Below the pieces are notes generated by a model. That model did not search any database, was not told the DNA's origin, and saw nothing but the letters and a program-made list of their open reading frames with translations. 64,000 nt of DNA, taken from an uncultured Armatimonadetes bacterium. Its GTDB lineage: Bacteria; Armatimonadota; UBA5829. This document shows, piece after piece, positions 1,574 through 60,340 of the stretch. The DNA lies in the NCBI GenBank assembly GCA_963711155.1, contig CAVQDB010000005.1, positions 1,923,298-1,987,297 on the forward strand, given 5' to 3'. The position numbers and the translations under genes were made by a program. Each line of letters starts with the position of its first letter. The stretch's first letter is position 1.

Positions 1574-3088
1574 CGTTTTTTCCGCTTCTCGGTGCGGCGG
1601 CAATAATGTTCATCCCAAAGGAGAAGCCGGCGGCGATCAAGGCGGCGGCGATCGCGATCAGCCTGGTGCCGCTCGCGATGTCGGTCTGGCTGTGGTTCGC
1701 GTACAGCGCATCCGGCGGGCAGTTTCCCAAGGGCACGCAGTTCGAGAGCATCGCGCAGTGGATACCGGCGCTCGGCGTGACGTTCCACATGGGGGTGGAC
1801 GGCCTGTCCGTGCCGCTGGTGTTTCTCACGACGCTGCTGACCACGCTCAGCTTGATCTACTCGGTGTTCATCGAGACGCGGCCCAAGGAATACTTCTGGA
1901 TGTTTCTGCGTGCTCGAGACGGGGATGCTCGGGGTGTTCACGGCGCTGGACTTCGTGCTGTTCTTCGTGTTCTGGGAGGTGTCGCTGGTGCCGATGTATT
2001 TCCTGATCGGCATCTGGGGCGGCCCGCGCAGGGAATACGCGGCGATCAAGTTCTTCCTGTACACCATGGTCGCGAGTATGGCGATGCTGCTTGCGATCCT
2101 GGCGATGTACTTCTCGCCGGAGGTCCTGCGAATCACCGGCGGCCACCGCACGTTCGATATGATGGTCATCGCGCAGGCGCTGCCTTATGCAAAGAACGTG
2201 ATCGTGGGCGCGCTGGTGTTCTGGGGACTGTTCTTCGGGTTTGCGGTCAAGGTGCCGATGTTCCCGTTCCATACATGGCTGCCCGACGCCCACGTCGAGG
2301 CGCCGACGGCCGGCTCCGTGATACTTGCCGGCGTCTTGCTGAAGATGGGGACCTACGGGTTCATGCGAGTCCTGATGCCGATGATGCCGGTGCAGTTCGC
2401 GAGGTACTGGTTGATCATCGCCATCGTCTCGATTATCGCGATCATCTACGGCGCGTTCGTTGCGATGGCGCAGACCGACCTCAAGAAGCTGATCGCATAC
2501 TCGTCCGTGAACCACATGGGCTACGTGACGCTGGGCTGCGCGGTGGCGGGAGCGGCGGGCTATGGCATCCACATGAGCCATTCCGCGCGGACGCTTGCGC
2601 TGAACGGCGCGCAGATGCAGGTATTCAGCCACGGGCTTATCACGGGCGCATTGTTCTTCCTTGTGGGCGTTGTATATGAGCGCGCTCACACGCGCAATCT
2701 CGCCGATTTCGGCGGGCTTGGCGCGAGGGTGCCGGTATACGCGGGGATGCTGGCGTTTTGCAGCTTCGGCTCGCTGGGGCTGCCGGGTATGACGGGGTTC
2801 ATCGCGGAGCTTTCCGTGCTGACGGGCACATATAACGCGAGCGCGCTGCTTACAGGGCTGGCGTTGATAGGGATCGTGGTGACGGCGGCGTATATGCTTT
2901 GGATGCTGCAGCGGGTGCTGCTCGGCCCGCTGAACCCGAAATGGGACAAGATGCCGGACGCCAACGGCCGCGAGATCCTGAGCCTCGCGCCGCTGATGAC
3001 GCTGATGCTGCTGTTCGGCGTCTACCCCGGCCCGGTGTGGACGTTCTTTACGAACGCGTCGAATGCTATACTAGGAGTGATCCACTGA
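1543..3088 (+). CDS. nuoM: NADH-quinone oxidoreductase subunit M, split by one frameshift as assembled
   Basis: The first ~120 aa (MGSAYILPILTFFPLLGA...KEYFWMFL) lie in the ORF 1543 frame. The rest (LETGMLGVFTALDFVLFFVFWEVSLVPMYFLIGIWGG...) lies in the ORF 1910..3088 frame. One extra base near 1909. The start overlaps the nuoL stop. Confidence 0.85.
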
Positions 3089-3114
3089 TGATTTACGCCG
3101 TTCAACTTGCACAG

Positions 3115-3177
3115 CACGTCGTGCTGAACTTGATTCAGCATCCACGCCTGGGCCCTGAATCAAGTTCAGGGTGACGT
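3115..3177. repeat. REP-like double hairpin (CTGAAC..GTTCAG family), copy 1
   Basis: cacgtc-gTGCTGAActtgatTCAGCAtccacgcctgggcCCTGAAtcaagtTCAGGgt-gacgtg. Two hairpins are bracketed by inverted cacgtc/gacgtg. The architecture matches 27640..27701. Confidence 0.7.
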
Positions 3178-3228
3178 GATACAACTCACTGAGCGCAAAT
3201 CACTTAGCCTACGAAGCGGAGGCAGATC

Positions 3229-3531
3229 ATGAGGCGATTTCATCTGGATATATCGCTCGATAGTGTTGCAGAGATCGCAAAGAGATATCCTGTGAAGGAG
3301 CTTGCTCTGTTCGGATCCGTGCTGCGCGACGATTTCACGCCGGATAGCGACGTAGATGTATTGGTCGAGTTCGAGCCGGATGCTACGATCGGCTTTCTTG
3401 GCATGGCCGCATTGGCGCGCGAACTCTCCGCCGTCACCGGACGACAGGTCGATCTAGTTCCCAAAGCGGGGCTGAAACCCAGGATCAGGAAGCCGATACT
3501 CGACAGCGCACAGGTGATCTATGCGAGATGA
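3229..3531 (+). CDS. mntA: MNT-type nucleotidyltransferase antitoxin
   Basis: LFGSVLRDDFTPDSDVDVLVEF is the minimal pol-beta NTase signature. About 100 aa. It overlaps the downstream HEPN gene by 11 nt. Confidence 0.8.
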   Translation: MRRFHLDISLDSVAEIAKRYPVKELALFGSVLRDDFTPDSDVDVLVEFEPDATIGFLGMAALARELSAVTGRQVDLVPKAGLKPRIRKPILDSAQVIYAR

Positions 3532-3879
3532 GGCCCTGTATCTACAGACATCGTTGACGCGGCCGACCAGATCGCTGAGATCCTGAAGGACAGCGGCAAG
3601 GACGACTATGACGCGTCAGATACCGTCCGCAGCGCTGTTCTGCTCAAACTGCTATTCATCGGCGAGGCGGCGGCGAATCTATCGAGCGATTTTCGGTCGA
3701 GACATCCAGAGATCGAGTGGTCGGATGTCGTGGCGTTCAGGAACTACACCATCCACGCGTACTTCTCTGTGGACTGGAGGAGAGTCTGGGACGCGGCAAC
3801 GCAAGATGCTCCACTGCTGCGAGAGAAGGTCTCGGATATCATGTTCTGGGAGTTCCCAGAGACGCAGACCAACGACTGA
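3521..3879 (+). CDS. hepT: HEPN/DUF86 toxin (HepT-like), one frameshift near its 5' end as assembled
   Basis: ATG at 3521 (MRDEALYLQ). After a -1 shift at ~3546 it reads DIVDAADQIAEILK...LLFIGEAAANLS...VVAFRNYTIHAYFSVDW (RX4H HEPN motif). Stop at 3877-3879. Confidence 0.65.
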
Positions 3880-3891
3880 TAACTAACGACT

Positions 3892-5541
3892 ATGCACATA
3901 GGCAATCTTATACTCATATCACCGGCTATCTACCTCATCGTCGCGGCGGTGGTGGTGCTGATCGTGGGGGTCATTGCGTCGCGCAAGCCCGAGGGTAGGC
4001 TGGAGCACTTCTTCTCGGCGCACTATCTCGCGCCCGCGCTGACGGTCCCGGCGCTTGCCATGGCCGGTGCGCTCATAGCAGCGTGGCTCAAGTATGATAT
4101 TCAGCCCGAGAACGTGCGCTTGTTCGTCACGCCTGGCGGCTATGCCCAGCTCACCGTCGATCCGTTTGCGATGATGCTGTCGTTCATCGCGATAGCAGGG
4201 ACCCTGATCGTGATGCTGCTCTCCATCGACCACTTCGGCGAGTTCCAGATCCACAAGGCCGAGTACTACGCGCTGCTGATGCTCGCGACCGCGGCGGCAT
4301 CGCTTGCGGCGGCGGCATCGGACCTGATCGCGATCTACCTCTGCATCGAATTCCTGAGCCTGGTGAGCTATGTGCTGGCGGCCTACGCGAAGAATGACAG
4401 GCGGTCGGGTGAGGCTGGGCTGAAGTATTTCCTCTACGGCGCGGCGTGCTCGGCGATAATGCTCTACGGCATGTCGATCCTGTTTGGCGTAACGGGCGGC
4501 AACACGTCGCTCGCGGCAATCGCGCGGGGGTTCGCCGTAACGTCGCCTGATCTGGGCTTCGGCGCGGCCGCGACCGGCGCGGGCTGGGTCGGGATCATGT
4601 TCGTGCTGGTGGGGCTTGGGTTCAAGCTCGCGCTGGTGCCGTTCCAGTTCTGGGCGCCCGATGTCTACGAGGGCGCGCCGACGCCGATCACCGCGTTTCT
4701 GTCGATTGTGAGCAAGGCGGCGGGGCTGGCGGTGCTGGTGCGGTTCGTGATGGTCGTTGCGGACCCGGCGGCGAGCCCGGCGTCACTGAGCTGGTATTGG
4801 ATACTGGTCGTGATGAGCGCGCTGAGCATGCTGTGGGGCAATCTCGTTGCGATTTCCCAGACCAACATCAAGCGAATGCTGGCGTATTCGAGCATCGCGC
4901 AGGTCGGGTATATGATGGTCGGCGTGCTTGCGGAGATGCATCTGTTCGCGGCGCCCCTCCGGCAAACTCACGACGCGGCGGTTCGGGCGAGCGTGCCGAC
5001 CGGCACTCCGCTGCCGTGGGGTCTGCAGGGCGTGCTGATATTCCTGGCGGCGTATCTGCTGATGAACCTGGGCGCGTTCGCGGTCGTGGTGGCGGTCGGG
5101 AAGCGGCAGGGCTCCGACAAGATCGAGTGCTACGCGGGCCTGATGCGGCGGGCGCCGTTTTATGCGGCATCGCTGACCATCTTTTTCGCATCGCTTGCGG
5201 GAATACCGCCGACGGCCGGCTTCCTGGGCAAGTTCTTCGTGTTCGGAAGCGCGATCAAGGTGGGAATCGCCGGACATCCGGAGCTTATCGCGCTTGCGGC
5301 GCTGGGTGTGGCGAACAGCGTCATATCGGTGTATTATTACTTCAACGTCGTTCGACTGATGTTCTTTGCGCCGGGAAAAACGAAGCCGGCGATCCATGGC
5401 ACACTGGCCGTCAGGACGGCGGTGGTCGTTACGCTGGTGCTGACCTTGGGGCTGCTCGTGCTCGCGAGCCCTGCGTCGAGGATTGCATCGGATGCGGTAT
5501 ACGCGGCCGGCCCGACTATGGTTCATACGGTGGGGAGATAA
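3892..5541 (+). CDS. nuoN: NADH-quinone oxidoreductase subunit N
   Basis: 549-aa polytopic protein with PFQFWAPDVYEGAPTPITAFL and KRMLAYSSIAQVGYM motifs. Last gene of the nuo cluster. Confidence 0.9.
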   Translation: MHIGNLILISPAIYLIVAAVVVLIVGVIASRKPEGRLEHFFSAHYLAPALTVPALAMAGALIAAWLKYDIQPENVRLFVTPGGYAQLTVDPFAMMLSFIAIAGTLIVMLLSIDHFGEFQIHKAEYYALLMLATAAASLAAAASDLIAIYLCIEFLSLVSYVLAAYAKNDRRSGEAGLKYFLYGAACSAIMLYGMSILFGVTGGNTSLAAIARGFAVTSPDLGFGAAATGAGWVGIMFVLVGLGFKLALVPFQFWAPDVYEGAPTPITAFLSIVSKAAGLAVLVRFVMVVADPAASPASLSWYWILVVMSALSMLWGNLVAISQTNIKRMLAYSSIAQVGYMMVGVLAEMHLFAAPLRQTHDAAVRASVPTGTPLPWGLQGVLIFLAAYLLMNLGAFAVVVAVGKRQGSDKIECYAGLMRRAPFYAASLTIFFASLAGIPPTAGFLGKFFVFGSAIKVGIAGHPELIALAALGVANSVISVYYYFNVVRLMFFAPGKTKPAIHGTLAVRTAVVVTLVLTLGLLVLASPASRIASDAVYAAGPTMVHTVGR

Positions 5542-10227: not shown

Positions 10228-11328
10228 ATGAACACGATAGAAGGCACTGCCAAACAGCCTGGAATCGCGATCGCGGTGGCGGCGGTGGTTGATGCGAGAA
10301 GAGGCATCAACGCGGTGTCTCCCGCCCTGCTGCAGGAGGGCATATCGGCGCTGATGCGGGCGGCCAAGCCTGCCGACTACCCCGAGGCGATAATCGCGTG
10401 CGACAGCCTCGCCGTTGGCACAATCACGAGAATTCCGGGGATCAGCACGGCCGGCATCGCGGCGGAATCCGACACGGACGTGCCGGGAATCGACATCGAA
10501 ACGCCGTGCGTGATCGGCCTGACGGACCTGCTGAGATCGATCTCCGAGGGCGACATTCTGATCGTGGACGGTTACAGAGGCGAGGTTCACATCGACCCCG
10601 ACCCTCAAACGGTAATGCACTACCAGCAGGCGCAGGAGCGCCGCAACATGCGCGAGAAGGTCTTCATCACCTCCGAGCACATTCCCGCGCGCACGCAGTC
10701 TGGGGAGACGGTGCTGGTCTACGCTCAGCTATCCAAAAAAGGTGACAGACACCTTTTAGATTCGTGCTCAGAAAAGGTGTCTGTCACCTTTTTGGAGACG
10801 GCGCTTGAGGCGGGCGCGGACGGGCTGCTGGTGGATGCGCGCGGAATGGCGGACGTGGGCGGCGTTTCGGGTGAGATCCTGCGCGAGGCGGCCGGGAAGC
10901 CGGTGGTGTTGGTGGTGGATATGCACGTTATGGACGTGCTGCGCGCGGCGATGGCGTACTGCGCGCCGGGACAGGTGACGCTCGTCGGCGATGACTCTGA
11001 GCATCTGGCATCGCAGGTCGAGTCGGCGATGGACATTATCGTGCTCGAAGCACTGCAGCTGGACATCGAAGCGCCCGATGTCAAAGTCGGCGGCATCGCG
11101 CACGCGGGCATGTGCGATCCCAACGACCCGTCGCTGATCGCGATCGACGCGGCCGACTGCGGCATTGAGGACTTGCCCCAAATGCGTGAGGAAAGAATAG
11201 TCATAATCGGCGGCCGGCTCAAGGCAATCGAGCCGCTGGTGAAGGCCGGCGTCAGGCGGATCGCGGTCGAGCCCGAACTCGTAGGCGACGCCAAGTACGC
11301 GATACGTTCGATAGCACCCGAGGGCTGA
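10228..11328 (+). CDS. PEP-utilising enzyme (PtsI)-like protein lacking an obvious phospho-His motif
   Basis: Swivel-domain-like CVIGLTDLLRSISEGDILIVDGYRGEVHIDPDP. No GGxTSH motif seen. 4-nt gap to the DUF5131 gene. Carries the 63-nt palindrome at 10733..10795. Confidence 0.45.
   Translation: MNTIEGTAKQPGIAIAVAAVVDARRGINAVSPALLQEGISALMRAAKPADYPEAIIACDSLAVGTITRIPGISTAGIAAESDTDVPGIDIETPCVIGLTDLLRSISEGDILIVDGYRGEVHIDPDPQTVMHYQQAQERRNMREKVFITSEHIPARTQSGETVLVYAQLSKKGDRHLLDSCSEKVSVTFLETALEAGADGLLVDARGMADVGGVSGEILREAAGKPVVLVVDMHVMDVLRAAMAYCAPGQVTLVGDDSEHLASQVESAMDIIVLEALQLDIEAPDVKVGGIAHAGMCDPNDPSLIAIDAADCGIEDLPQMREERIVIIGGRLKAIEPLVKAGVRRIAVEPELVGDAKYAIRSIAPEG
10733..10795. repeat. 63-nt AT-rich palindrome inserted in-frame in the PtsI-like CDS
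   Basis: CCAAAAAAGGTGACAGACACCTTTT, 14-nt loop, AAAAGGTGTCTGTCACCTTTTTGG. Exactly 21 codons (SKKGDRHLLDSCSEKVSVTFL). Confidence 0.8.
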
Positions 11329-11334
11329 TCACGA

Positions 11335-11412
11335 AGGGAGAATCGGGAAAGGGAGAAAATCAGAAATGGAGAAAGGGCTTTCTCCCTTTCTAGTTTTCCC
11401 CTTTTTCCGATG
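11335..11412. repeat. purine-rich imperfect palindrome (GAAGGGAGAATCGG family), copy B
   Basis: gaagggagaatcgggaaagggagaaaatcagaaatggagaaaggg / ctttctccctttctagttttcccctttttccgatg, 7 nt after the stop of 10228..11328. Confidence 0.55.
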
Positions 11413-12409: not shown

Positions 12410-12492
12410 TTACGAGTTACGAAATACGGAAATACGAATCCGGGAGACGGTTGCAGCAACCTTGTTTCGTATTTCGTAATTCGTAATTCGTC
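12409..12492. terminator. TACGAAW heptamer-word hairpin between convergent stop codons
   Basis: gttacgagttacgaaatacggaaatacgaa, 26-nt loop, tttcgtatttcgtaattcgtaattcgt. It fills the gap between the stops at 12407-09 (+) and 12491-93 (-) exactly. Confidence 0.6.
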
Positions 12493-20918: not shown

Positions 20919-22472
20919 ATGCCGAGTACAGCCAGTACCACGCGTTGGATCATCCTTATCGCGGTGATGCTGGGCACGCTGATGCAGGTGATCGACACCA
21001 GCATCGTCAACGTGGCGATCCCGCAGATGATGGGCAACCTCGGCGCGACTCTGGACCAGATCGGCTGGGTTTCAACCGGCTACATCATCGCAAACGTGAT
21101 CGTTCTGCCGCTGACCGGCTGGCTTTCGTCTACGTTCGGCCGTAAGCGCTACCTGGCCGCGTCGATGATGATCTTCACGGCAGCTTCATTCCTGTGCGGC
21201 ACATCCCACAGTCTGACCGAGCTTATCGTCTATCGCATCCTGCAGGGCGCAGGCGGCGCGGCGCTGCTCTCGACCGCACAGGCCACGATGATGGAGATAT
21301 TCCCGCCGCAGTTGCTGGGGATGGTGCAGGCGATCTACGGCATCGGCATAATGGTGGGGCCGACTGTCGGCCCGACGCTGGGCGGCTGGATAACCGACAA
21401 CTACTCCTGGCCGTGGATATTCTTCATCAACGTCCCCATAGGCATTCTGGCGTCCGTGATGACGTGGGTCTACGTCCACGATTCGCGGCATGAGCGGGCA
21501 AGGGCGGGCATAGATGCTATCGGCATCGGCTTCCTCGCGCTAGGTCTGGGATCGCTGCAGACGGTGCTGGAGAAGGGCAACCGCGAGGACTGGTTCCACT
21601 CGAACTTCATCGCAACGCTGGCGTTCTTGGCTGTTGCCGGCCTGATCGCGTTCGTCACATGGGAACTGCGGATCAAACACCCAGCGGTAAACCTGCGCAT
21701 TCTCAAGGATCGAGGGTTCGCGGCGGGCACAATCATCGCCACCGTCGTGGGGTTCGGCTTGTATGGCGGCATATTCATCCTCCCGGTATATCTGCAGCAG
21801 CTCAGGGGTTACTCGGCCTGGCAAACCGGGTGGATCGTCTTCCCAGGCGCGGCAGCTACCGCCGTAGTCATGCCGTTCATAGGGCACATCGTAAGCAGGT
21901 TCTCGCCGAGGAGGCTGGTGGGAGTGGGCGTGATCGCGTTCATCGTGTCAATGTACTGGCTCAGGACGCTGACTCTGAGCACCGGCCCGGAGCACATGTT
22001 CTGGCCGCTGGTGGTTCGCGGCGCCGCGATGGGATTCCTGTTCGTGCCGCTCACACTGGCCACCCTGCTCAGCATATCCCCAAAGAACATGGCCGATGGA
22101 ACAGGGCTTTTCAACCTCTTCCGGCAGCTTGGCGGCAGCGCGGGGATAGCGTTTCTGGCGACTTTTGTCGATCACCGCGCCGATATGCATCGCACCACCC
22201 TTGTCGAGCATATCAGCGCCTACAATCCGGTCGCGATGCAGCGGCTGAGCAGCGCGCAGCACTGGTTGATGACCAAGGGGTATACCGCGCCAATGGCAAA
22301 GCAGAAGGCGCTCGGGCTGTTCGACCGAATGGTCCAGGGGCAGGCAATGGTGATGTCGTTTGGGGACGCGTTCCTCATGACCGGGATCATTTTCGCGTGC
22401 GTGCTCCCGCTGCTTCTGCTGTTCAAGAAGGGCCGTATCAAAGCGATGTCCGGCCCCCCGGCCGCGGAGTAA
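20919..22472 (+). CDS. MFS DHA2 (EmrB/QacA) drug:H+ antiporter, 14 TM
   Basis: LDTSIVNVAIPQM, GWLSSTFGRKR and WPWIFFINVPIG motifs. 517 aa. Confidence 0.85.
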   Translation: MPSTASTTRWIILIAVMLGTLMQVIDTSIVNVAIPQMMGNLGATLDQIGWVSTGYIIANVIVLPLTGWLSSTFGRKRYLAASMMIFTAASFLCGTSHSLTELIVYRILQGAGGAALLSTAQATMMEIFPPQLLGMVQAIYGIGIMVGPTVGPTLGGWITDNYSWPWIFFINVPIGILASVMTWVYVHDSRHERARAGIDAIGIGFLALGLGSLQTVLEKGNREDWFHSNFIATLAFLAVAGLIAFVTWELRIKHPAVNLRILKDRGFAAGTIIATVVGFGLYGGIFILPVYLQQLRGYSAWQTGWIVFPGAAATAVVMPFIGHIVSRFSPRRLVGVGVIAFIVSMYWLRTLTLSTGPEHMFWPLVVRGAAMGFLFVPLTLATLLSISPKNMADGTGLFNLFRQLGGSAGIAFLATFVDHRADMHRTTLVEHISAYNPVAMQRLSSAQHWLMTKGYTAPMAKQKALGLFDRMVQGQAMVMSFGDAFLMTGIIFACVLPLLLLFKKGRIKAMSGPPAAE

Positions 22473-22551
22473 CGCATTGACAATTTCCGATTGACGATCT
22501 ACGATTTACCAAGCCAACCACGGGTCACAAGTCGTCAATCGTCAATAGCAA

Positions 22552-24717
22552 ATGAGCAAACCTGCTGCCGACAAGCCCGCATCCGTTCCGCGTCCGCGTT
22601 CGCTGGACACTGAGGTCCAGTATGTGAAGGGCGTCGGGCCGCGGATCGCCGGCATGCTCGTCAAGCTCAACATTGGCACCGCCGGCGACCTGCTCCACCA
22701 CTTCCCCCGCCGCTACGAGGATCGCACCCACTTCGCCAGGGTCGCAAGCCTCCAGCACGGCGAGACCGCAACCGTTCGCGGCACCGTACTTGGCGCCGAC
22801 AACGTCTCCACCCGAGGGCGACTCGTTCTCACGAAGGTGGTCATCGATGACGGAACCGGCTCGCTTGTGCTAACGTGGTTCAACCAGAAGTTCCGCAAGG
22901 AGCAGTTCACCAAGCTGCGCGGACGCGAGATCGTCGCGTATGGGACCGTGCAGGCGGGTAGGTGGGGCGTGGAGATGCCCTCGCCTGAGGTCGAGATCTT
23001 CTCAGAACAGGGCGACCCGCTGTCAACGGGGCGCGTGGTACCGGTCTATCCGCTCACGGAAGGCCTTTTCCAGATCACGCTGCGCAAGGTCATCTACGGC
23101 ATGCTGGACGCGTATCTCCCGCTCATCGAGGAGACGCTGCCGGAGGACCTGCGCAACCGGCTCGACCTGATGGACGCGCAGGAGGCGATCCGCAACATAC
23201 ATTTCCCCGAGAGCGATGAGGCTCGTCTGGCGGCGCGGAAGCGATTGGTGTTCGAAGAGCTGTTCCTGCTGCAGCTTGCGCTCGCGATGAGAAAGCGCGG
23301 GATCGAGGCGCCCGGGCAGGGGATTGCGTTCAACATCCCGCCCGATCTCAAGGATCAACTGCGAAAGATACTGCCGTTCGAGCTCACGAACGCGCAGAAG
23401 AAGGTGATCAAGGAGATCGCCAACGATATGGCGCGGCCGGTGTGCATGAACCGGCTCCTGCAGGGCGACGTCGGCTCGGGCAAGACCGCGGTCGCGCTGG
23501 CGGCGATGCTGATCGCCGCGGCGAACGGCTACCAGTCCGCGCTGATGGCCCCGACCGAGATCCTCGCCGAGCAGCATTATATGGGCATTTCGCGATTGCT
23601 GGCACGCGCGGAAAATGGGGACAGTCCACCCGCTCCGCTTGGGACAGTCCCCATTTTCCCGAGCATTCGCGTCGATCTGCTTACCGGCAGCCTGCGCAGC
23701 GCGCACCGGCGGCAGGTCAACGAACGCATCGCGTCCGGCCAGACGCAGATCGTCATAGGCACGCACGCGCTGATTCAGGAGGGCGTGGAGTTCCACAAGC
23801 TGGGGCTGGTGATCGTTGACGAGCAGCACCGCTTCGGCGTGATGCAGCGGGCGGCGCTCATGGAAAAGGGCCTGATGCCCGACATGCTGGTCATGACCGC
23901 CACGCCGATCCCGCGCACGCTCACATTGACCGTCTACGGCGACCTCGACGTCTCGGTCATCGACGAGCTTCCGCCCGGCCGAAAGCCGATCAAGACCCAC
24001 TGGAAGCAGATCGGCGAGCGGCGAAAGGTCTACGCGGCGCTGCGGACGCTGATCGACCAGGGCAGGCAGGCCTACGTCGTCTGCCCGCTGATCGAGGAGA
24101 GCGACAAGCTGCAGGTGCAGGCCGCAACCGAGCTTGCCGAATTCCTGCAGACCGAGGTCTTCCCCGACATCAAGATCGGCCTGCTGCACGGCGGCATGAA
24201 GTCGGATGAGAAGGACGCCGTGATGACCGCGTTCAGAAGCGGCGAGGTGAATATCCTCGTCTCGACCACGGTGATCGAGGTGGGCGTTGACGTAGCGAAC
24301 GCCACAGTGATGGTGATCGAGGACGCCGACAGATTCGGGCTCGCTCAATTGCATCAACTCAGAGGAAGAGTCGGGCGCGGTGACGAACAGTCATATTGCG
24401 TGATGATCTGCGAGGGCAACAGCCAGGACTCGATCAAGCGCATGACGACGATGGCGCAGACCAACGACGGGTTCGTCATCGCCGAGAAGGATCTCGAACT
24501 GCGTGGCCCCGGCGAGTTCTACGGGACCAAGCAGAGCGGAATGCCCGAGCTGACGCTGGCGGACATCTTACACGACATACCGATACTCGAACTCGCCCGC
24601 AAAGAGGCGTTCGCGATAATCGACAAGGACCCGAATCTTTCGGCGGAGGCGTTCGGCAGGCTCCGCCGCGATCTGATCAAGAAGTACGAGGCGTTTGAGC
24701 TGGTGACGGTGAGCTGA
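22552..24717 (+). CDS. recG: ATP-dependent DNA helicase RecG
   Basis: Wedge domain, LLQGDVGSGKTAVA, VIVDEQHRFGV, MTATPIPRTL and QLHQLRGRVGRG motifs. 721 aa. Confidence 0.9.
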   Translation: MSKPAADKPASVPRPRSLDTEVQYVKGVGPRIAGMLVKLNIGTAGDLLHHFPRRYEDRTHFARVASLQHGETATVRGTVLGADNVSTRGRLVLTKVVIDDGTGSLVLTWFNQKFRKEQFTKLRGREIVAYGTVQAGRWGVEMPSPEVEIFSEQGDPLSTGRVVPVYPLTEGLFQITLRKVIYGMLDAYLPLIEETLPEDLRNRLDLMDAQEAIRNIHFPESDEARLAARKRLVFEELFLLQLALAMRKRGIEAPGQGIAFNIPPDLKDQLRKILPFELTNAQKKVIKEIANDMARPVCMNRLLQGDVGSGKTAVALAAMLIAAANGYQSALMAPTEILAEQHYMGISRLLARAENGDSPPAPLGTVPIFPSIRVDLLTGSLRSAHRRQVNERIASGQTQIVIGTHALIQEGVEFHKLGLVIVDEQHRFGVMQRAALMEKGLMPDMLVMTATPIPRTLTLTVYGDLDVSVIDELPPGRKPIKTHWKQIGERRKVYAALRTLIDQGRQAYVVCPLIEESDKLQVQAATELAEFLQTEVFPDIKIGLLHGGMKSDEKDAVMTAFRSGEVNILVSTTVIEVGVDVANATVMVIEDADRFGLAQLHQLRGRVGRGDEQSYCVMICEGNSQDSIKRMTTMAQTNDGFVIAEKDLELRGPGEFYGTKQSGMPELTLADILHDIPILELARKEAFAIIDKDPNLSAEAFGRLRRDLIKKYEAFELVTVS
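23611..23658. repeat. 48-nt palindrome inserted in-frame in recG
   Basis: GAAAATGGGGACAGTCC, 14-nt loop, GGACAGTCCCCATTTTC (one mismatch). Exactly 16 codons within ARAENGDSPPAPLGTVPIFPS. Confidence 0.8.
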
Positions 24718-24746
24718 GCCTCAGAACATGCGCAGGAGAAGCGAGA

Positions 24747-25745
24747 TTGAAGAACAACCCACTCCCGCGGTTGGATATTGATAGCGAGACAAGGGACAAG
24801 TTGCTGCCGTTGTGCAGGCTAGAGCCAGGCGATATCTGGACGGATCCAGAAGAACGCCACAAGGTAGCCTGCGTGGACGCGGGTGACTCCGAAGCGATTC
24901 TGCGGTTGATGCAAGGTGATCTCGCGCAACTCGCCGTACAGGATCCACCCTACAACCTTGTGGCATTCGAGGAGAGACACATCCGCGAGTTCATCAACTG
25001 GTGTGAGACGTGGGTACGTAACTCATCCCGTGTTCTTGCACTAGACTCATCATTCTATGTGTGGCTAGGCGCGGATCAGAACAATGCTTTCCAGCCGCTG
25101 CCTGACTTCATGATTATGATGCGGGACTTCGATGAGTTTTCTTCTCGATCGTTCATGACCATGCGTAACCAAAGGGGATATGGAACACAGCGCAACTGGA
25201 TGGCTGTGCGCCAAGAGCTCCTGTATTACACAAAAGGGAACCCCCCTTTCGAGGTCCAGTATACAGACATACCAAAGATACTGCGCGGTTACTACAAGGA
25301 TGTAAACGGAAACACCACGGAGAATCTCGAGCGCAGCAAGTCGGAGAATATACGCGCCGGAAACGTCTGGGTCGATATACAGCAGGTCTTCTACCGCCTG
25401 GAGGAAAACGTATCAGGCTGCTACGCGCAGAAGCCGCTCAAAGCCATTGAGCGAGTTGTTCTTGCGAGTTCCAGCCCCGGTGATCTCGTTGTCGATTTCT
25501 TCGCGCATTCCGGCACGACGCTGCTGGCTTGCGAGAGGCTGAAGCGGCGCTGCTATACCGGAGACATTGATCCTGTCTATTGCGAGATCGCGATACGGCG
25601 GCTTGAACGCTATCGACACTTCGGCCGTACGGGATGGCAGAATGGCCACCCGTTCGAAGATGAGTTCACTAGCATATTGGGGCGTGAAGCGTCGAGCCTG
25701 GATCCCGTTGGCAGAGACGTGAGTCCTCAGACAGCACTATTCTAG
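24747..25745 (+). CDS. beta-class N6-adenine/N4-cytosine DNA methyltransferase
   Basis: VQDPPYNL (motif IV) precedes VVDFFAHSGTTLLACERL (motif I). Visibly lower GC than the flanking genes. Confidence 0.8.
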   Translation: MKNNPLPRLDIDSETRDKLLPLCRLEPGDIWTDPEERHKVACVDAGDSEAILRLMQGDLAQLAVQDPPYNLVAFEERHIREFINWCETWVRNSSRVLALDSSFYVWLGADQNNAFQPLPDFMIMMRDFDEFSSRSFMTMRNQRGYGTQRNWMAVRQELLYYTKGNPPFEVQYTDIPKILRGYYKDVNGNTTENLERSKSENIRAGNVWVDIQQVFYRLEENVSGCYAQKPLKAIERVVLASSSPGDLVVDFFAHSGTTLLACERLKRRCYTGDIDPVYCEIAIRRLERYRHFGRTGWQNGHPFEDEFTSILGREASSLDPVGRDVSPQTALF

Positions 25746-25752
25746 GAGCGAG

Positions 25753-26496
25753 ATGGAGAAGCTACGCGCTAAGCTCAACGACCTGATATCCGAGCTGGAG
25801 GATGCCAACGACATCTTGGAACGGCTTGCCGAGTTGACATCCGTCTACCCGTTCAACGAGTACGAGTATATGATCTCCACTCTCCTGGGTAGGGGCAAGC
25901 TCTGCCTTGACGACTACTATGAACTGAGAGATGACTATATTGCTCGCAACCTGTACCTCTATGTATTTGAGATTAGCGCGCCTCGCGGTTTCGGGGAGGC
26001 GTGGGCACAGGGGCATCTCAAGGAACTAGTGCCCGAACTCGTAAAGCCCTCGAAGAAGCTCGATCCCGACTATTCCGGTGACTATGATTTCTACCTCGAC
26101 AATCACATACGGATTGAAGTGAAGGCATCGCGGGCCGTGGCGTTCAGAACGGACGAGCCGCTGTACGTCAAGGCGTTGGCCTCTGACTCAGGTGAGCAGT
26201 TCGACATGAACTTCCAGCAGGTGAAGTGCCGCTGTTGCGATGTGTTCGTGTGGATCGCCGTGTGGCGCGATCTGATTCGATACTGGGTACTGAACTGCCG
26301 AGAGCTGGAATCCAACCGCTACTTCTCCAACGGTCAGCACCGTGGCAATGTAGGCGAGGGCCAGCTCCATCTGAACCGCGATAATATCGATCACTTCTCG
26401 GAATACGAGGCTCGCCCGCGGGATCTACTAGACGCGATAAGAGCGGCCCATGGACGTTTGAACGCAAATGAAAGCAATCTATCCCGGCAGCTTTGA
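25753..26496 (+). CDS. hypothetical protein, candidate PD-(D/E)XK restriction endonuclease partner
   Basis: DFYLDNHIRIEVKASRA fits the D...(D/E)XK pattern. 8 nt after the MTase stop and lower in GC. Overlaps the coaD start by 29 nt. Confidence 0.4.
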   Translation: MEKLRAKLNDLISELEDANDILERLAELTSVYPFNEYEYMISTLLGRGKLCLDDYYELRDDYIARNLYLYVFEISAPRGFGEAWAQGHLKELVPELVKPSKKLDPDYSGDYDFYLDNHIRIEVKASRAVAFRTDEPLYVKALASDSGEQFDMNFQQVKCRCCDVFVWIAVWRDLIRYWVLNCRELESNRYFSNGQHRGNVGEGQLHLNRDNIDHFSEYEARPRDLLDAIRAAHGRLNANESNLSRQL

Positions 26497-27597: not shown

Positions 27598-27718
27598 TTG
27601 CGAATTACGAATTACTAGTTGCGAGTTACGAATCGCCTAGTGTCATGCTGAACTTGATTCAGCATCCAGGCCTGGATCCCGAAACCAGTTCAGGATGACA
27701 CGATTCGTAACTCGTAAC
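27598..27718. repeat. composite element: TACGAAT-word inverted arms enclosing a REP-like double hairpin
   Basis: Left arm ttgcgaattacgaattactagttgcgagttacgaatcg. Cargo 27640..27701 is gtgtcaTGCTGAActtgatTCAGCA...CCCGAAaccagTTCAGGatgacac. Right arm cgattcgtaactcgtaac. Confidence 0.7.
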
Positions 27719-27740: not shown

Positions 27741-28739
27741 ATGCCGAATGTGATGGAGACGATCTACGCCAAGGCCAGGGCCGCCACAAAGCGCGTTGTG
27801 CTGCCGGAGGCTGATGATGTGAGGACCGTCGCCGCGGCCCAGAAGATAGTTGAGCGCGGTCTGGCCCAGGTGGTACTGGTCAGCGAGGAGGACAAGATCG
27901 CGGCTGCGTGCAAGGCGTCCGGCGCGGACGTGTCCGGCTGCAGAATCGTCGATCCGGTCAAGTCGCCACTGCGAGACGAATACGCTAAGGCGTTCTACGA
28001 ACTTCGAAAGGCAAAGGGCATCACAGAGCAGCAGGCGCACGAGATCGTCGCCGACCCGCTCTATTTCGGCTGCATGATGGTCTACTCCGACGAGGCCGAC
28101 GGGCAGGTCTCCGGCGCGACGCACGCGACCTCCGACACGGTCCGCCCCGCGCTGCAGATCCTCAAGACCGCGCCGGGGTGCAAGATCGCGTCGAGCTTCT
28201 TCGTAATGATCGTCCCGGACTGCGAATACGGCGAGAACGGCGTCTTCATCTACGCGGACTCCGGCCTCGTCATCAACCCCAACGCCGACGAACTCGCCGA
28301 GATCGCCATCCAGAGCGCGAAGACGATGCGCACACTGCTCGGCTTCGAGCCGCGAGTGGCGATGCTGTGCTTCTCGACCAAGGGCAGCGCGTCCGATCCG
28401 ATCGCGGACAAGGTGATCGAGGCCACCAGGATCGCCAAGGAGCGCGCGCCGGAGCTGCTCATCGACGGCGAGCTTCAGGGCGACGCGGCCCTGGTCGATT
28501 GGATCGGCAAGAAGAAGGCGCCCGGAAGTCCTGTCGCGGGCAGAGCGAACGTTCTGATTTTCCCTGACCTCAATGCAGGTAATATATGCTACAAGCTGAC
28601 GGAGAGGCTGGCGAAGGCCGAGGCCTACGGCCCGGTCCTTCAGGGCATCCGCAGGCCCGTCAATGACCTCTCCAGAGGCTGCGATGTGGAAGACATAGTC
28701 AACGTCGCCGCGATTACCGCGGTGCAAGCGATAGAATGA
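27741..28739 (+). CDS. pta: phosphate acetyltransferase
   Basis: VVLPEADDVRTV...SGATHATSDTVRPALQI...IFPDLNAGNICYKL. ATG 27741 inside ORF 27720..28739. Confidence 0.9.
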   Translation: MPNVMETIYAKARAATKRVVLPEADDVRTVAAAQKIVERGLAQVVLVSEEDKIAAACKASGADVSGCRIVDPVKSPLRDEYAKAFYELRKAKGITEQQAHEIVADPLYFGCMMVYSDEADGQVSGATHATSDTVRPALQILKTAPGCKIASSFFVMIVPDCEYGENGVFIYADSGLVINPNADELAEIAIQSAKTMRTLLGFEPRVAMLCFSTKGSASDPIADKVIEATRIAKERAPELLIDGELQGDAALVDWIGKKKAPGSPVAGRANVLIFPDLNAGNICYKLTERLAKAEAYGPVLQGIRRPVNDLSRGCDVEDIVNVAAITAVQAIE

Positions 28740-28817
28740 GTTACGAAATACGAACTACGAAATACGAATTGGGAAGCGTGCGTCCTCATTCGTATTTCGT
28801 ATTTCGTAACTCGTAAC
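28740..28817. terminator. TACGAAW heptamer-word hairpin after pta
   Basis: gttacgaaatacgaactacgaaatacgaat, 18-nt loop, attcgtatttcgtatttcgtaactcgtaac. It begins 1 nt after the pta stop. Confidence 0.65.
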
Positions 28818-28841
28818 TGGAAACACCAGGTAACCCAGTCG

Positions 28842-30073: not shown

Positions 30074-30108
30074 GATGCTTCGGTGCTCGTTTTTCGCACC
30101 GAAGCATC
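30074..30108 (+). terminator. 13-bp perfect stem-loop after ackA
   Basis: gatgcttcggtgc, tcgtttttc, gcaccgaagcatc. There is no clear trailing T-tract. Confidence 0.45.
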
Positions 30109-33123: not shown

Positions 33124-34020
33124 ATGGGGAGTAGGAAGGTTGCGTTCGTATTCCCCGGCCAGGGGTCGCAGTGCGTCGGGATGGGCAAGGAGCTTGCGGA
33201 GAACTATGCCGTGGCGGCGGACGTGTTCAAGCGCGCCGACGCTGCACTGGGCTACTCGATCTCGGAGCTGTGCTTCAACGGCCCTGAAGACGAGCTGAAG
33301 CAGACCATCAACGCGCAGCCCGCGCTCTTTGTGACCAGCGCGGCGGCGTATGAAGTCGCGCTTGAGAATGGCCTCCTGCCGGCGTTTGCCGCGGGTCACA
33401 GCATCGGCGAATACGCGGCGCTCTATGCGGCGGGCACATACACGCTCGAAGAGGGATTGAGGCTGGTTCGGACCCGCGCGCGGTTGATGCAGGACGCTGC
33501 CGAAGCCAATCCGGGCACGATGGCCGCGATTCTCGGCCTGTCGCCCGAACAGGCCACCGAAGCGGTCGAGAAATCGGCCGACGCCGGGATCGTCACCGCG
33601 GCCAACTTCAACAGCCCGATCCAGACGGTGATATCGGGCGAGGCGGCGGCGGTCGCGAAGGCGTCCGAGATCGCTTCCGAGATGGGCGCGAAGCGCGTCG
33701 TGCCGCTCAACGTCAGTGGCGCGTTTCACTCGCCTCTTATGCAGTCGGCGGCGGAAGCGCTCTATGAAGCGCTGAAGGGTGCTGAGATGTGCGATCCCAT
33801 GACGCCCGTGGTCGCGAACTATACCGCCGACTTCGAAACTACCGCCGCCGAAGTGCGCGCCAATCTAGCCAAACAGCTCACCGGCAGCGTGCGGTGGGTC
33901 GAGTCCGTACGCAGGATGCTTGACGCGGGGGCCGAAGCTTTCATAGAATTGGGGTCGGGTAACGTGCTGGCGGGGCTGATCAAGCGGATCGCGCCGGAAG
34001 CAGAGATCATTGAGTATTGA
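33124..34020 (+). CDS. fabD: malonyl CoA-ACP transacylase
   Basis: FVFPGQGSQ, AGHSIGEYAAL and VSGAFHSPLM motifs. Confidence 0.9.
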   Translation: MGSRKVAFVFPGQGSQCVGMGKELAENYAVAADVFKRADAALGYSISELCFNGPEDELKQTINAQPALFVTSAAAYEVALENGLLPAFAAGHSIGEYAALYAAGTYTLEEGLRLVRTRARLMQDAAEANPGTMAAILGLSPEQATEAVEKSADAGIVTAANFNSPIQTVISGEAAAVAKASEIASEMGAKRVVPLNVSGAFHSPLMQSAAEALYEALKGAEMCDPMTPVVANYTADFETTAAEVRANLAKQLTGSVRWVESVRRMLDAGAEAFIELGSGNVLAGLIKRIAPEAEIIEY

Positions 34021-34095
34021 TTATTGAGTATTGAGTATTTCCACCGAGTCCACGACTGCGTGGGCAATACTCAATACTCAATACGAAATACTCAG
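34009..34095. repeat. GAGTATT heptamer-word hairpin overlapping the fabD stop
   Basis: attgagtattgattattgagtattgagtatt, 25-nt loop, caatactcaatactcaatacgaaatactcag. Confidence 0.65.
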
Positions 34096-35120: not shown

Positions 35121-35263
35121 GCCGTCCCGAGCACGGAAGCCCGAAACATAGAGAGCCAGAAACGGAAGTACCCTTTCTGCTTTTCTGGTTTTTGGGGATT
35201 CCATGCTCAGGCGATGCCGCCAACCAGCACAGTGTAGGCGGGGTACGATTCGCCATTTGCAGA

Positions 35264-35293
35264 GGTTCAAAGGCCTCAAGAGGCCTTTGAACC
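35264..35293 (+). terminator. 12-bp perfect stem-loop between acpP and fabF (terminator/attenuator candidate)
   Basis: GGTTCAAAGGCC, tcaaga, GGCCTTTGAACC, followed by ttt, about 20 nt before the fabF start. Confidence 0.45.
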
Positions 35294-35314
35294 TTTGGGC
35301 ATAGGTAGGGGTTA

Positions 35315-36553
35315 ATGCAGGAAAGAAGAGTTGTAGTAACCGGCCTTGGGGCGATCACTCCCCTGGGCAACACCGTTGATGAGTTCTGGGCGTCGGTAAA
35401 GGCGGGCAAGAACGGTATCGGACCGATAACGCATTTCGACGCCTCCCAGCACGCCACGCAGATAGCGGCGGAGGTTAAGGGCTTCGATCCGACCGAGTTC
35501 GTCGATGCAAAGTCCGCGCGGCAGATGGACACGTTCGTCCAATACGCGACCGCGGCGGCGCTCACCGCGATGAAGGACAGCGGACTCGAAGTCACCGAGG
35601 AAAACGGCCCTCGCGTCGGCGTGCTGATCGGATCGGGCATCGGCGGGGTCGAGACCTGGGAAGTGCAGCATATCAATTTGCTCAACAACGGCCCGAGGCG
35701 CGTCAGCCCGTTCTTTGTCCCGATGCTGATCGCGAATATGGCCAGCGGGATGGTGGCGATCCTTACCGGCGCCAAGGGACCGAACATGGCCGTGGTGACC
35801 GCGTGCGCGACCGCCAGCCACTCCACCGGCGAGGCCTGGCACATGATCCGGCGCGGCGATGCCGACGCGATGATCGTCGGCGGCGCCGAGGCAGCGATTC
35901 GACCGCTGAGTTGCGCCGGTTTCTGCACCATGAAGGCGATGACCACCCGCAACGACGATCCCGAGCACGCCAGCCGGCCGTTCGACAAAGATAGAGATGG
36001 GTTCGTAATGGGCGAGGGCGCGGGCGTTCTCATCATCGAAGAACTCGAGCACGCCAAGGCCCGCGGCGCGCACATCTACGCCGAGATCGTCGGCTACGGC
36101 TGCTCGGCGGACGCGTATCACATGGTCGTTATCGACCATCACGGCGCGGCGCGAAGCATGCAGAACTCGCTCGATAGCGCCGGCATTACCGCCGACAAGA
36201 TCGACTACATCAACGCGCACGGCACATCGACGCCGGTCGGCGATCCCGAGGAGTGCAAGGCGATCAAGCTGACGTTTGGCGACGCCGCGAAGAACGTGAT
36301 GGTCAGCTCGACGAAGTCCATGCACGGCCACCTGCTCGGCGCGGCGGGTGCGGTCGAGAGCATCGTGTGCATCAAGGCGATCAACGAGGGCATTGTCCCG
36401 CCGACCCGCAACCTGGTCGAGCCCGATACCGAGTGCACTCTCGATCTCATTCCGAACGAGGCGCGCGAAGCGAAGGTAGAATATGCGATGAACAACTCCT
36501 TCGGCTTCGGCGGCCAGAACGCGACGCTGATTTTCAGAAGGTTTGATGGTTAG
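35315..36553 (+). CDS. fabF: 3-oxoacyl-ACP synthase II
   Basis: [34 protein letters not shown] and NSFGFGGQN motifs. Confidence 0.9.
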
Positions 36554-36628
36554 TGGAAAGCTGAGAGTGGAAAGTGGAAAGCGGCCGGGCCGCTCGCAGC
36601 TTTCCACTTTCCGCTTTCCACTTTCCAC
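36553..36628. repeat. GGAAAGT heptamer-word hairpin after fabF
   Basis: gtggaaagctgagagtggaaagtggaaagcgg, loop, agctttccactttccgctttccactttccac. It starts at the fabF stop. Confidence 0.65.
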
Positions 36629-36640
36629 CCGGAGGTCTGC

Positions 36641-37837
36641 ATGTCACTCATATCCCGAAGAGCACGTAATGTAAGCCCGTCCGCCACCCTCGCCATCACT
36701 GCGAAGGCCAAGGCGATGCAGGCGGAAGGCATCGACGTCGTCAACTTCGGCGCCGGCGAGCCCGATTTCGACACGCCCCAGCACATCAAGGACGCGGCGG
36801 CGAAGTCGATGCAGTCCGGGTTCACGAAATACACGCCCACCTCCGGCACGCCCGACCTCAGAAAGGCGATCTGCGAGAAGCTCGCGCGCGACAACGGCCT
36901 CGAATACAAGCCCGGCGAGATCATCGTGTCGCTCGGCGCGAAGCATTCGATCTACAACGCGGCGTTGGCCGTGGTCGATCCCGGCGATGAGGTCATCATT
37001 CCCGCGCCGTATTGGGTCAGCTACCCGGAGATCGTGGGCCTCGCGGACGGCAAGCCGGTCTGCGTCGAGACCGACGAATCCACCGGCTTCACCGCGCCCA
37101 TCGACAAGCTGCGCGCGGCAGTCACGCCCAAAACGCGAATGCTGATCCTCAACAGCCCAGCAAACCCAACCGGCGCCATCTATAGTGGCAAGCAGATCGA
37201 GCAGATCGCGGAGCTGGCGGTCGAAAAGGGCTTCTACGTGCTCAGCGACGAGATCTACGAGAAGATCATCTACGACGGCAACGAGCACGTGAGCATCGCC
37301 TCGCTCGGCGACGAGATCAAGAAGCTCACGATCACCGTCAACGGCTTCTCCAAGGCGTTTTCCATGACCGGCTGGCGGCTGGGCTACGCCGCCGCCGAAC
37401 GCGACATCGTTGACGCGATGTCGGCGATCCAGAGCCACAGCGCGTCGAATTTGGTCTCGTTCACGCAGCCCGCGGCGGTCGCGGCGCTAGACGGCCCGCA
37501 GGAAACGGTCGATGACATGGTTGCGGAGTTCGACAAGCGGAGGCGTTACATCGTCGGCCGCCTCAACGCGATCGACGGAATCACGTGCACGATGCCCGGC
37601 GGCGCGTTTTACGTGTTCCCGAACGTGGGCAAGCTGTACGGCGGGGCATTCGACGGCAAGAAGATCGCCAACTCAGATGAGTTCGCCGACTTCTTGCTCG
37701 CCGAGGCGAAGGTGGCCGTCGTCGCCGGCAGCGGGTTCGGCGCGGACAACTACGTCCGGCTCTCCTATGCCACATCGATGGCAAACATAGAAAAGGGCCT
37801 GGACAGGATAGACGAGGCGGTGGCGAAGCTGGGATAG
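36641..37837 (+). CDS. class I PLP-dependent (aspartate) aminotransferase
   Basis: NFGAGEPDF, PANPTG and NGFSKAFSMTGWRLGY (Lys site), SYATS. Confidence 0.85.
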   Translation: MSLISRRARNVSPSATLAITAKAKAMQAEGIDVVNFGAGEPDFDTPQHIKDAAAKSMQSGFTKYTPTSGTPDLRKAICEKLARDNGLEYKPGEIIVSLGAKHSIYNAALAVVDPGDEVIIPAPYWVSYPEIVGLADGKPVCVETDESTGFTAPIDKLRAAVTPKTRMLILNSPANPTGAIYSGKQIEQIAELAVEKGFYVLSDEIYEKIIYDGNEHVSIASLGDEIKKLTITVNGFSKAFSMTGWRLGYAAAERDIVDAMSAIQSHSASNLVSFTQPAAVAALDGPQETVDDMVAEFDKRRRYIVGRLNAIDGITCTMPGGAFYVFPNVGKLYGGAFDGKKIANSDEFADFLLAEAKVAVVAGSGFGADNYVRLSYATSMANIEKGLDRIDEAVAKLG

Positions 37838-49455: not shown

Positions 49456-49601
49456 GTGTCATGCTGAACTTGTTTCAGCATCCAGGCGCCAACCTGTCAT
49501 GCTGAACTTGTTTCAGCATCCAGGCGCTAACGGGTCATGCTGAACTTGTTTCAGCATCCAGGCGGGCTGTCGTGGATCCTGAATCAAGTTCAGGATGACA
49601 T
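49456..49601. repeat. REP-like cluster: three tandem left-type hairpins plus one inverted right-type hairpin
   Basis: (g/c/g)tgtcaTGCTGAActtgttTCAGCAtccaggcg three times at a 38-nt period, then ggatCCTGAAtcaagtTCAGGatgacat. Confidence 0.8.
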
Positions 49602-56690: not shown

Positions 56691-57996
<1,306 letters not shown>

Positions 57997-59794: not shown

Positions 59795-60340
59795 TTACCT
59801 CTTCGCGCCCGCTTTCTTCAGCAGCCGGACGACTTCTCGTTGGTCATCTGCCTTGGCGGCCGCCAGCGCTGTGAGCCCATCATCAGCCTCTGCGTTGACA
59901 TCTGCCCCGTGCTCGATCAGCACTTGCACTATCTCGGTACGCCCAGCCGACGCAGCCAGGACGATGGCGGGATAGGCATCGACGGTCGCGTTTGGGCTTG
60001 CGCCGCGCGCCAGCAGAGACCTCACCTCACTGACATCGCCGTGGCTTGCTGCACGGGCCAACGGCTTGTCCAGAAACAGCTCCTTGCCCGTGGCGAGACC
60101 GAGAAACAGGGCCAGCGCCAGCCAGGCGGCAATCCCAAGGTTGCGCGCGATCCGCGCAGGGCGGCCCCACTTGCGCACAGCAAACCACCCGGCCACCAGC
60201 CACGCTGCCAGCGCCGCCGCCCAGAACACCGCCAGAGCCATCAGACCAAAGGGCACCATCCCGTCCATTCTCGATCCCTTTCTCTCGCGCTTTCGCCCTT
60301 TCGCGATCTCGCGAGTACAGCCCTTCACAAACTCCCTCAT
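59795..60340 (-). CDS. membrane-anchored ankyrin-repeat protein
   Basis: Two TM segments, then [18 protein letters not shown]...[18 protein letters not shown]...TALAAA. Its ATG overlaps the trmFO stop (ATGA). Confidence 0.7.

Follow-up and report, generated by a model that had tools for sequence, protein, structure and literature searches.

Small repeats linked to tyrosine transposases are known from several bacterial systems, and one described group lies inside genes. Specifically, genes for TIRYT proteins, which are tyrosine transposases resembling the REP-associated tyrosine transposases (RAYTs; REP, repetitive extragenic palindromic), are flanked by inverted repeats that share the motif GGGGWSAS (Di Nocera et al. 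2013, PMC3733652). TIRYT corresponds to TnpA_REP subclass 2.1, with the consensus GGGG[AT][CG]A[CG] (Quentin et al. 2018, PMC6006769). REP-type repeats within genes were described in 2013 (Di Nocera et al., PMC3733652). The published intragenic inserts of this type encode 20–30 amino acids. Many are found in genes for replication and repair, and a mutator or hyper-recombination effect was put forward as a speculation by Di Nocera et al. (PMC3733652). Here, we analyze a palindrome, called E1, that sits in-frame in the helicase gene recG at positions 23610–23659 of a 64-kb stretch of Armatimonadota DNA. We refer to this whole stretch as the window; its lineage is taken from the source names attached to its RecG homologues. 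The closest known class for E1 is the already described intragenic repeats of the REP/terminal inverted repeat (TIR) type that are linked to RAYT-like transposases, and not the Rickettsia palindromic elements (RPEs).

Three other kinds of small repeat serve for comparison. REPINs are REP doublets that form hairpins and are mobilized by RAYTs; they lie outside genes, carry a GTAG tag, and reach copy numbers from the tens into the hundreds (Bertels and Rainey 2011, PMC3116915). RPEs are ~100–150 bp long, are restricted to Rickettsia, and encode a conserved peptide (Ogata et al. 2000, 2002, as summarized in PMC10969869). Finally, classical bacterial MITEs (miniature transposable elements with inverted repeats), such as Correia, ERIC, and Nezha, derive from DDE-transposase insertion sequences and duplicate their target sites.

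An In-Frame Palindrome in recG

The host gene, the segment that distinguishes it from its orthologues, and the parts of E1 are the following:

22552–24717, + strand: recG, the host gene, 721 amino acids, with the wedge, DEAD, Helicase_C, and RecG_dom3_C domains intact
23602–23664, + strand: replaced segment, 21 codons (ARAENGDSPPAPLGTVPIFPS) in place of 7 orthologue codons (GEQDLMG / GDQDLMG)
23610–23627, + strand: E1 left arm, GGAAAAT followed by GGGGACAGTCC, that is, an A-run and then a GGGGWSAS-type core
23628–23641, + strand: E1 spacer or loop, 14 nt, ACCCGCTCCGCTTG
23642–23659, + strand: E1 right arm, GGACAGTCCCC followed by ATTTTCC, the reverse complement of the left arm bar one mismatch

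E1 comprises 50 nt, GGAAAATGGGGACAGTCC / ACCCGCTCCGCTTG / GGACAGTCCCCATTTTCC, with 18-nt arms that are complementary at 17 of 18 positions and a loop of 14 nt. The lone mismatch is the central base of GGACAGTCC, and because it sits at that center, GGACAGTCC doubles as a 9-nt direct repeat. A sequence-only reading of the window had recognized a palindrome with a 14-nt loop and one mismatch, in which positions 23611–23658 make up exactly 16 codons of the recG frame (encoding ENGDSPPAPLGTVPIF) between the GSGKT and DEQH motifs. The palindrome is real and slightly longer than that reading had it, and its placement in the gene holds. The same reading called the element AT-rich, which we correct here: the GC content of E1 is 58% versus 63% for recG, and AT-richness is confined to the outer 7 bp. 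It is at third codon positions that E1 stands apart, with 50% GC versus 85% in the rest of recG, and on this account the element is compositionally foreign to its host gene.

Chance is excluded as the source of the E1 palindrome. The window contains 36 hairpins with 11 or more paired bases, whereas shuffled sequences yield 4–5, an excess of ~7-fold. With up to three mismatches allowed, 0.16 occurrences of the E1 arm are expected in the window, and nothing was found there beyond the two arms themselves; the loop likewise has no related copy in the window beyond chance. Folded as RNA, as the sequence-only reading had proposed, E1 forms a stable hairpin of −33.6 kcal/mol (z = −4.2). No stop codon occurs in any of the six frames, and, depending on the frame, the core encodes Gly-Asp-Ser-Pro, Gly-Thr-Val-Pro, or Gly-Gln-Ser-Pro. 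Two functional labels were considered and rejected. An intrinsic terminator does not fit the loop of 14 nt (versus 3–8 nt) or the stem, which has no T-run after it, and a terminator scan of 22000–25000 reported nothing at 23610–23659. Membership in a known structured RNA family was dropped with zero Rfam 15 matches in the whole window.

Sequence comparison supports the view that E1 was inserted, in-frame and in this lineage only, where RecG usually has just a short linker. Our comparison set consists of the 120 closest RecG homologues, which are 60–91% identical to the window protein, and none of them carries the segment (0/120). Where these homologues read ...RLLGEQD--LMGIRVDLL..., the window protein reads ...RLLARAENGDSPPAPLGTVPIFPSIRVDLL..., and the RecG proteins of Thermotoga maritima (1GM5) and Escherichia coli show a gap of 16–17 residues opposite the segment. 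The short linker that the sequence-only reading gave for RecG proteins here is borne out, and the ~16–21-residue segment, whose lineage-specificity it proposed to check, is specific to this lineage; no orthologue was found with a homologous segment encoded by non-palindromic DNA. An in-frame insertion had been proposed and is confirmed, but not at a clean 16 codons: 21 codons replace 7, for a net gain of 14 codons (42 nt), both in the protein alignment of 120 and in a nucleotide alignment with the related contigs L001 and L003. The nearest relative, with 91% protein identity and 64% identity at 4-fold sites, has an empty E1 site, and thus the insertion postdates the split from that relative.

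We placed the segment in three dimensions with an AlphaFold model made with 36 homologues. In this model, residues 355–370 are coil with a predicted local distance difference test (pLDDT) score below 50, and they lie in helicase domain 1 between helix 336–355, which comes after motif Ia, and strand 374–377. The E1 segment is accordingly modeled as a disordered surface loop that joins a helix to a strand in RecA-like domain 1, at a distance, along the sequence, from the helicase motifs. RecG is most likely made with 14 extra disordered residues rich in Gly, Pro, and Ser, and the protein with its insert is presumably still functional. The earlier proposal of a helicase with an added loop is upheld as far as the frame, the helicase motifs, and the modeled disorder go; that the loop is translated, we infer.

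Related Inserts in the Window and in Other recG Genes

A second palindrome in the window shares the design of E1:

10734–10795, + strand: E2, CAAAAAAGGTGACAGACACCTTTT / AGATTCGTGCTCAG / AAAAGGTGTCTGTCACCTTTTTGG, in-frame in the open reading frame (ORF) 10228–11328

E2 has arms of 22–24 nt and a 14-nt loop, adds a net 15 amino acids, and folds as RNA at −41.1 kcal/mol (z = −8.7). Its insert is absent from the 92 other homologues of its host protein (0/92). The sequence-only reading had matched E1 with this element (10733–10795) by design, and the kinship extends to sequence. Specifically, the arms of E1, E2, and a third element, E3, which is an insert in the recG gene of the related contig L004, have in common an A-run followed by GG[G/T]GACAG[A/T]C. 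In ~450 kb of related Armatimonadota contigs, this core occurs as an inverted pair in E1, E2, and E3 only. The left arm of E1 has GGGGACAG, which fits GGGG[AT][CG]A[CG], and E3 fits this consensus on both arms. A search with the E1–E3-encoded peptides against proteins gave no candidates, and a literature text search for the core string returned primers only.

Beyond E1, the internal lineage-specific inserts among the RecG homologues all fall at one further site, which lies after motif II with KG on one side and PD on the other, and the DNA is palindromic in all four:

L004:11286–11357: recG insert E3, GGGAGAAAGGGGACAGACACAATT / 12 nt / AATTGTGTCTGTCCCCTTTTCCC
L003:11290–11360: recG insert, a 60-nt imperfect palindrome around CCTCCAGGTA TCC TACCTGGAGG
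L005:4012–4059: recG insert, ATGGGGCGGGATT TGC AATCCCGCCCCAT
L146:138–185: recG insert, CTGGGTGGGGATT TCA AATCCCCACCCAG

The model puts this second site in the loop 439–443, between helix 429–438 and strand 444–449. Both insert sites connect a helix to a strand within RecA-like domain 1, and E. coli RecG also varies at the second of them. Every insert-bearing recG has an insert-free relative at 91–94% identity. We surveyed inserts of at least 6 amino acids in all orthologue clusters of the ~450 kb of related contigs, with no motif selection. The RecG inserts of the clade are all palindromic, five in 17,545 aligned residues, and the 22 other clusters (43,587 residues) contain no palindromic insert. 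The sole non-palindromic RecG insert belongs to L148, a distant homologue (45% identical) on a contig of 41% GC. A CTGATG target common to both RecG sites, each of which has LM in the ancestral sequence, was considered and set aside: the junctions are ambiguous, and the target is absent from E2.

The inserts of L005 and L146 sit at one site, are both 48 nt long, and have the hairpin in the same place. Between their stems there are three differences, each compensated on the opposite arm, such that a perfect 13-bp stem is kept. Identity between the two inserts is ~37% outside the stem, and the two genes agree at 48% of their 4-fold sites; the three-taxon identities among L005, L146, and an insert-free relative are 93.9%, 94.2%, and 92.9%. 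The comparison suggests either one old insertion with its stem kept or two insertions at one site. Both inserts are without the A-run/GACAG arm and resemble intergenic hairpins (window 60806–60844; L003 16176–16401), and thus more than one hairpin family is involved.

A Link to Y1 Transposases in Other Bacteria

To look beyond this clade, we scanned one genome per species with the pattern GGGGACWGWCN{8,38}GWCWGTCCCC, which returned at least 120 loci from many phyla, cultured isolates included. Among the matches listed, none is from Armatimonadota, and hence the scan provides no copy count for the host genome. The matches (at least 120 loci) are mostly long hairpins, often flanked by A- or T-runs and often repeated within the locus. 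Of the 120 loci listed, five contain Y1 transposase ORFs according to a hidden Markov model trained on three ORFs picked by their HUH/Y signature. The detected ORFs match Pfam Y1_Tnp, and their best NCBIfam model is the REP-associated tyrosine transposase, with scores under its cut-off.

Among the loci listed, Y1_Tnp ORFs adjoin GGGGACWG hairpins in four, L033, L052, L065, and L073, all from other phyla. In L052, the Y1 gene lies between two GGGGACAGACCC hairpins, and in L065 and L073, hairpins are located directly upstream of the Y1 gene. In L033, from Pseudomonas brassicacearum, inverted GG(A)GAAAAAGGGGACAGATTTATTTTT repeats lie on both sides of the Y1 gene. This bracketing repeat matches the right arm of E3, GGGAAAAGGGGACAGA, at 16 of 16 nt, and the arms of E1 and E2 align with the same Y1-flanking repeat. 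L033 is a clean example of a transposase-bearing unit. This locus has two adjacent Y1_Tnp gene copies (L033:1610–2420 and 2886–4178): inverted AAAAAGGGGACAGATTTATTTTT repeats bracket the first copy, the same repeat occurs upstream of the second, and a separate GGGGACAGACC hairpin adjoins the two.

Among the matches listed, hairpins with a GGGGACWG core also occur in-frame in long and genuine genes of other bacteria, namely those for a UvrA-like protein (L124:1–5070), an AcrB-family transporter (L027:3890–7384, Planctomycetota), MetH (L011:5281–7998, Acidobacteriota), and a Mur ligase (L050:3733–5301, Betaproteobacteria). Their peptide signatures include GDSP, GTVP, GLSP, and GDRP. Thus, in-frame hairpin insertion is general and not peculiar to this clade.

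Comparison with Described Repeat Families

E1 is like the published intragenic REP/TIR-type repeats in several respects: a short hairpin with the consensus arm core, ~15–30-amino-acid in-frame inserts in otherwise conserved proteins, a preference for repair genes, and variation in presence and absence between close relatives. The tie to TIRYT repeats is that the same repeat type brackets Y1_Tnp genes in the loci analyzed here. E1–E3 differ from TIRYT units in that their repeats face each other across 12–14 nt only, and the published cases that we found include neither Armatimonadota nor recG hosts. The sequence-only reading had known of no such family in GC-rich genomes; one is in fact described, by Di Nocera et al. 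in 2013 (PMC3733652) and by Quentin et al. in 2018 (PMC6006769).

The remaining classes match less well. Like a REPIN, E1 consists of two inverted units and a spacer that together form one long hairpin, and it presumably is non-autonomous and relies on a single-copy Y1 transposase for its movement. The doublet design is that of E2, in which each arm is self-complementary. However, E1 is intragenic, its arms are not complete self-folding units, and its ends have no GTAG or CGTC tag. The likeness to RPEs that was suggested earlier extends to behavior, as both are palindromic, selfish DNA placed in-frame in unrelated housekeeping genes at fold-compatible sites. It does not extend to identity: at 50 nt (63 nt with the replaced codons), with an apparently different sequence, and in a free-living, GC-rich lineage of Armatimonadota, E1 falls outside the description of RPEs given above. 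Classical MITEs are alike in their small size, their terminal inverted repeats, and their occasional in-frame ORF fusions. A DDE-type MITE was nonetheless rejected, since the junctions of E1, E2, and E3 show no target-site duplication.

Origin of the recG Insert

We consider it likely that E1 is a miniature, non-autonomous mobile hairpin that was derived from a Y1-transposase element and is tolerated in a permissive loop of recG. E1 would comprise two facing TIRYT-type (TnpA_REP subclass 2.1) terminal inverted repeats with a 14-nt spacer between them. E1–E3 look like miniature transposase-bearing units, in which two terminal repeats remain with only 12–14 nt between them. If the analogy with IS200/IS605 and REP/RAYT holds, the hairpin would be recognized in single-stranded DNA by a Y1 HUH transposase, and the element would be excised and pasted as single-stranded DNA with no target-site duplication. 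We infer that a Y1 transposase moved E1 by such a single-strand mechanism; the enzyme is presumably encoded in this genome. E1 would have entered recG after the lineage split from its closest sampled relatives, and it would have survived because it changed the length by a multiple of three, brought no stops in six frames, and landed in a permissive loop.

Several observations weigh against this origin. Neither the 64-kb window nor the ~450 kb of related Armatimonadota DNA yielded a Y1 transposase ORF. Agreement with the published motif is uneven: the right arm of E1, read on the other strand, is GGGGACTG, in which the mismatch breaks the motif, and E2 has GGTGACAG, with GGTG in place of GGGG. 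E1, E2, and E3 are alike over ~15 nt only, and their inner stems and loops differ. The window contains two related copies, E1 and E2, both intragenic, and no intergenic copy of an E1/E2-type hairpin was seen in it. In REP and MITE families, most copies usually lie between genes. Every insertion came with a replacement of host codons, 7 of them at E1, whereas simple peel-and-paste predicts clean addition. The cross-phylum loci, furthermore, were selected by a pattern with the core built in. On viral contigs, the real core gave 69 loci versus 19 and 58 for control cores, and a claim that GGGGACWGTCCCC is over-represented across bacteria was dropped on these counts. Finally, we know of no experiment in which transposition of GGGGWSAS-type repeats was shown.

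One alternative is that the hairpin was mobile or copied but moved by another route, as a DDE-transposase MITE or through capture of an intergenic hairpin by recombination or repair, in which case the likeness to TIRYT repeats would be convergent. We regard this as unlikely. Other hairpin families abound in the genome and its relatives, the inserts of L005 and L146 are similar to intergenic hairpins that have no A-run/GACAG arm, and both the replaced host codons and the missing Y1 gene would be at home under such a scheme. What tells against it is that the usual signature of a DDE-type MITE, a target-site duplication, is missing at E1, E2, and E3, and that the 16/16 identity between the E3 arm and a Y1-flanking repeat, together with the fit to the published motif, is hard to call convergence.

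A slightly less favored, and also unlikely, explanation is that selection now keeps the hairpin, wherever it came from, either as an mRNA or DNA structure that tunes the expression or stability of recG or as a loop that alters RecG activity, for instance with the mutator or hyper-recombination effect on which Di Nocera et al. speculated. The concentration of palindromic inserts in RecG, as opposed to none in the other clusters, would fit, as would the three compensatory stem changes between L005 and L146 and the bias toward repair genes, which is reported in the literature too. However, the RecG excess can be explained by two permissive loops and by recG-centered sampling, and the L005/L146 pattern may stem from two separate insertions. 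The E1 insert is confined to one genome, and hence shows no conservation, and neither a terminator-like site nor an Rfam match was found.

A related notion, which we put forward as speculation of similarly low probability, is that Y1 hairpins prefer, or are retained in, genes whose products process DNA that is single-stranded or branched and are not merely tolerated there. It arises from at least four independent events in two loops within one clade, along with the UvrA-like gene and other repair genes elsewhere. An altered helicase, or the hairpin in mRNA or DNA, could possibly favor the element or the host, for instance by relaxing the processing of hairpin or fork intermediates. If so, the stem-preserving double substitutions between L005 and L146 would reflect selection on structure.

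Improbable, in our judgment, is a de novo origin, in which a fault in replication or repair, for example template switching or fold-back priming at a break, made a palindrome that was never mobile. In its favor, the inserts are palindromic right up to their junctions, they differ from each other, and host codons were lost at the site. Yet events of this kind copy adjacent DNA, and the arms resemble neither the ancestral site nor the window. A template-switch origin was rejected, as the window contains no local template for either the arms or the loop of E1. Moreover, one 15-nt arm core recurs in events that were independent and hit different genes and genomes. The least credible account is an assembly or sequencing artefact: long C/G homopolymers lie close to a frameshift and an in-frame stop that break the trmFO gene of the window, so the assembly may hold indel errors, but two separate window palindromes both keep the frame and are stop-free, equivalent inserts occur in independent assemblies from other samples, and no platform typically produces a 50-nt hairpin in error.

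Implications

Taken as a mobile hairpin of the Y1-linked kind, E1 extends protein-coding palindromes to a poorly studied phylum and provides a concrete in-gene example tied to the GGGGWSAS repeats of RAYT-like transposases. Of interest are the host phylum, the two RecG loops that were used repeatedly, and a stem that was possibly preserved in evolution. The clade supplies natural filled and empty recG alleles at two loops, with possible compensatory maintenance of a hairpin, and these alleles can be used to study the movement of such elements and the reasons for which they so often end up in repair genes. There is also a caution for annotation: odd Gly/Pro-rich loops of 14–20 residues, with signatures such as GDSP, GTVP, and GLSP, may be mobile DNA and not lineage-specific adaptation.

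Neighboring Genes and Other Hairpins

Downstream of recG, positions 24747–26496 are lower in GC (~57%). This stretch contains an ORF (24747–25745) for a protein resembling a DNA methyltransferase with a DPPY motif and an ORF of 247 amino acids, and neither is among the genes called after recG in L001 or L003. These features point to an acquired island, perhaps one for restriction-modification.

The trmFO gene (window 60337–61919, − strand) has an insertion of ~200 nt at ~60640–60850, between ...NVLTAAL and LFFAGQ..., where TrmFO of Thermus thermophilus has 4 residues. The insertion begins with the hairpin TTCGGGCGGGAT TGCAG ATCCCGCCCGAA (60806–60844) and continues with three tandem GC-rich units of ~53 nt that contain C7–C8 and G7 runs. 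An in-frame TAG is present at 60802–60804, and the N-terminal part (61413–61919) is in another frame. This trmFO is either a pseudogene or the product of homopolymer assembly errors.

Long AT-rich hairpins occur just 3′ of genes in the window (11334–11411, 12410–12486, 28738–28824, 34009–34094, 36547–36641, and 57901–57990) and in L003 (4878–4954, 13727–13803, and 14825–14900). Their arms are imperfect tandem units of 5–7 nt, for example (AGTTACG)n ... (CGTAACT)n or GTGGAAA repeats, and a related contig has the AGTTACG type as well. These hairpins may be terminators of an unusual kind or a further repeat family. Intergenic REPIN-like doublets, in which a self-folding unit, ATGCTGAACTTGATTCAGCAT, is present twice in inverted orientation around a GC-rich spacer, are found at window 3115–3178, 27640–27701, 49534–49599, and 62849–62881, at L001:13886–13930, and at L003:13031–13090.

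Two further hairpins recur between genomes. The hairpin CAGAGGTTCAAAGGCC...GGCCTTTGAACCTTTG lies at window 35260–35297, just upstream of the ORF 35315–36553, and at L004:21531–21566 (between the acyl-carrier-protein and ketoacyl-synthase genes), L128:12769–12803, L132:10876–10911, and L158:21868–21904. In contrast to the mobile hairpins, its sequence is conserved across relatives. The hairpin GATGCTTCGGYGC...GCRCCGAAGCATC is located downstream of the acetate kinase gene in two genomes (window 30074–30108; L003:16309–16338), and in L003 it lies amid GGGGTCAGATT...AATCTGACCCC hairpins, which likewise fit GGGGWSAS.

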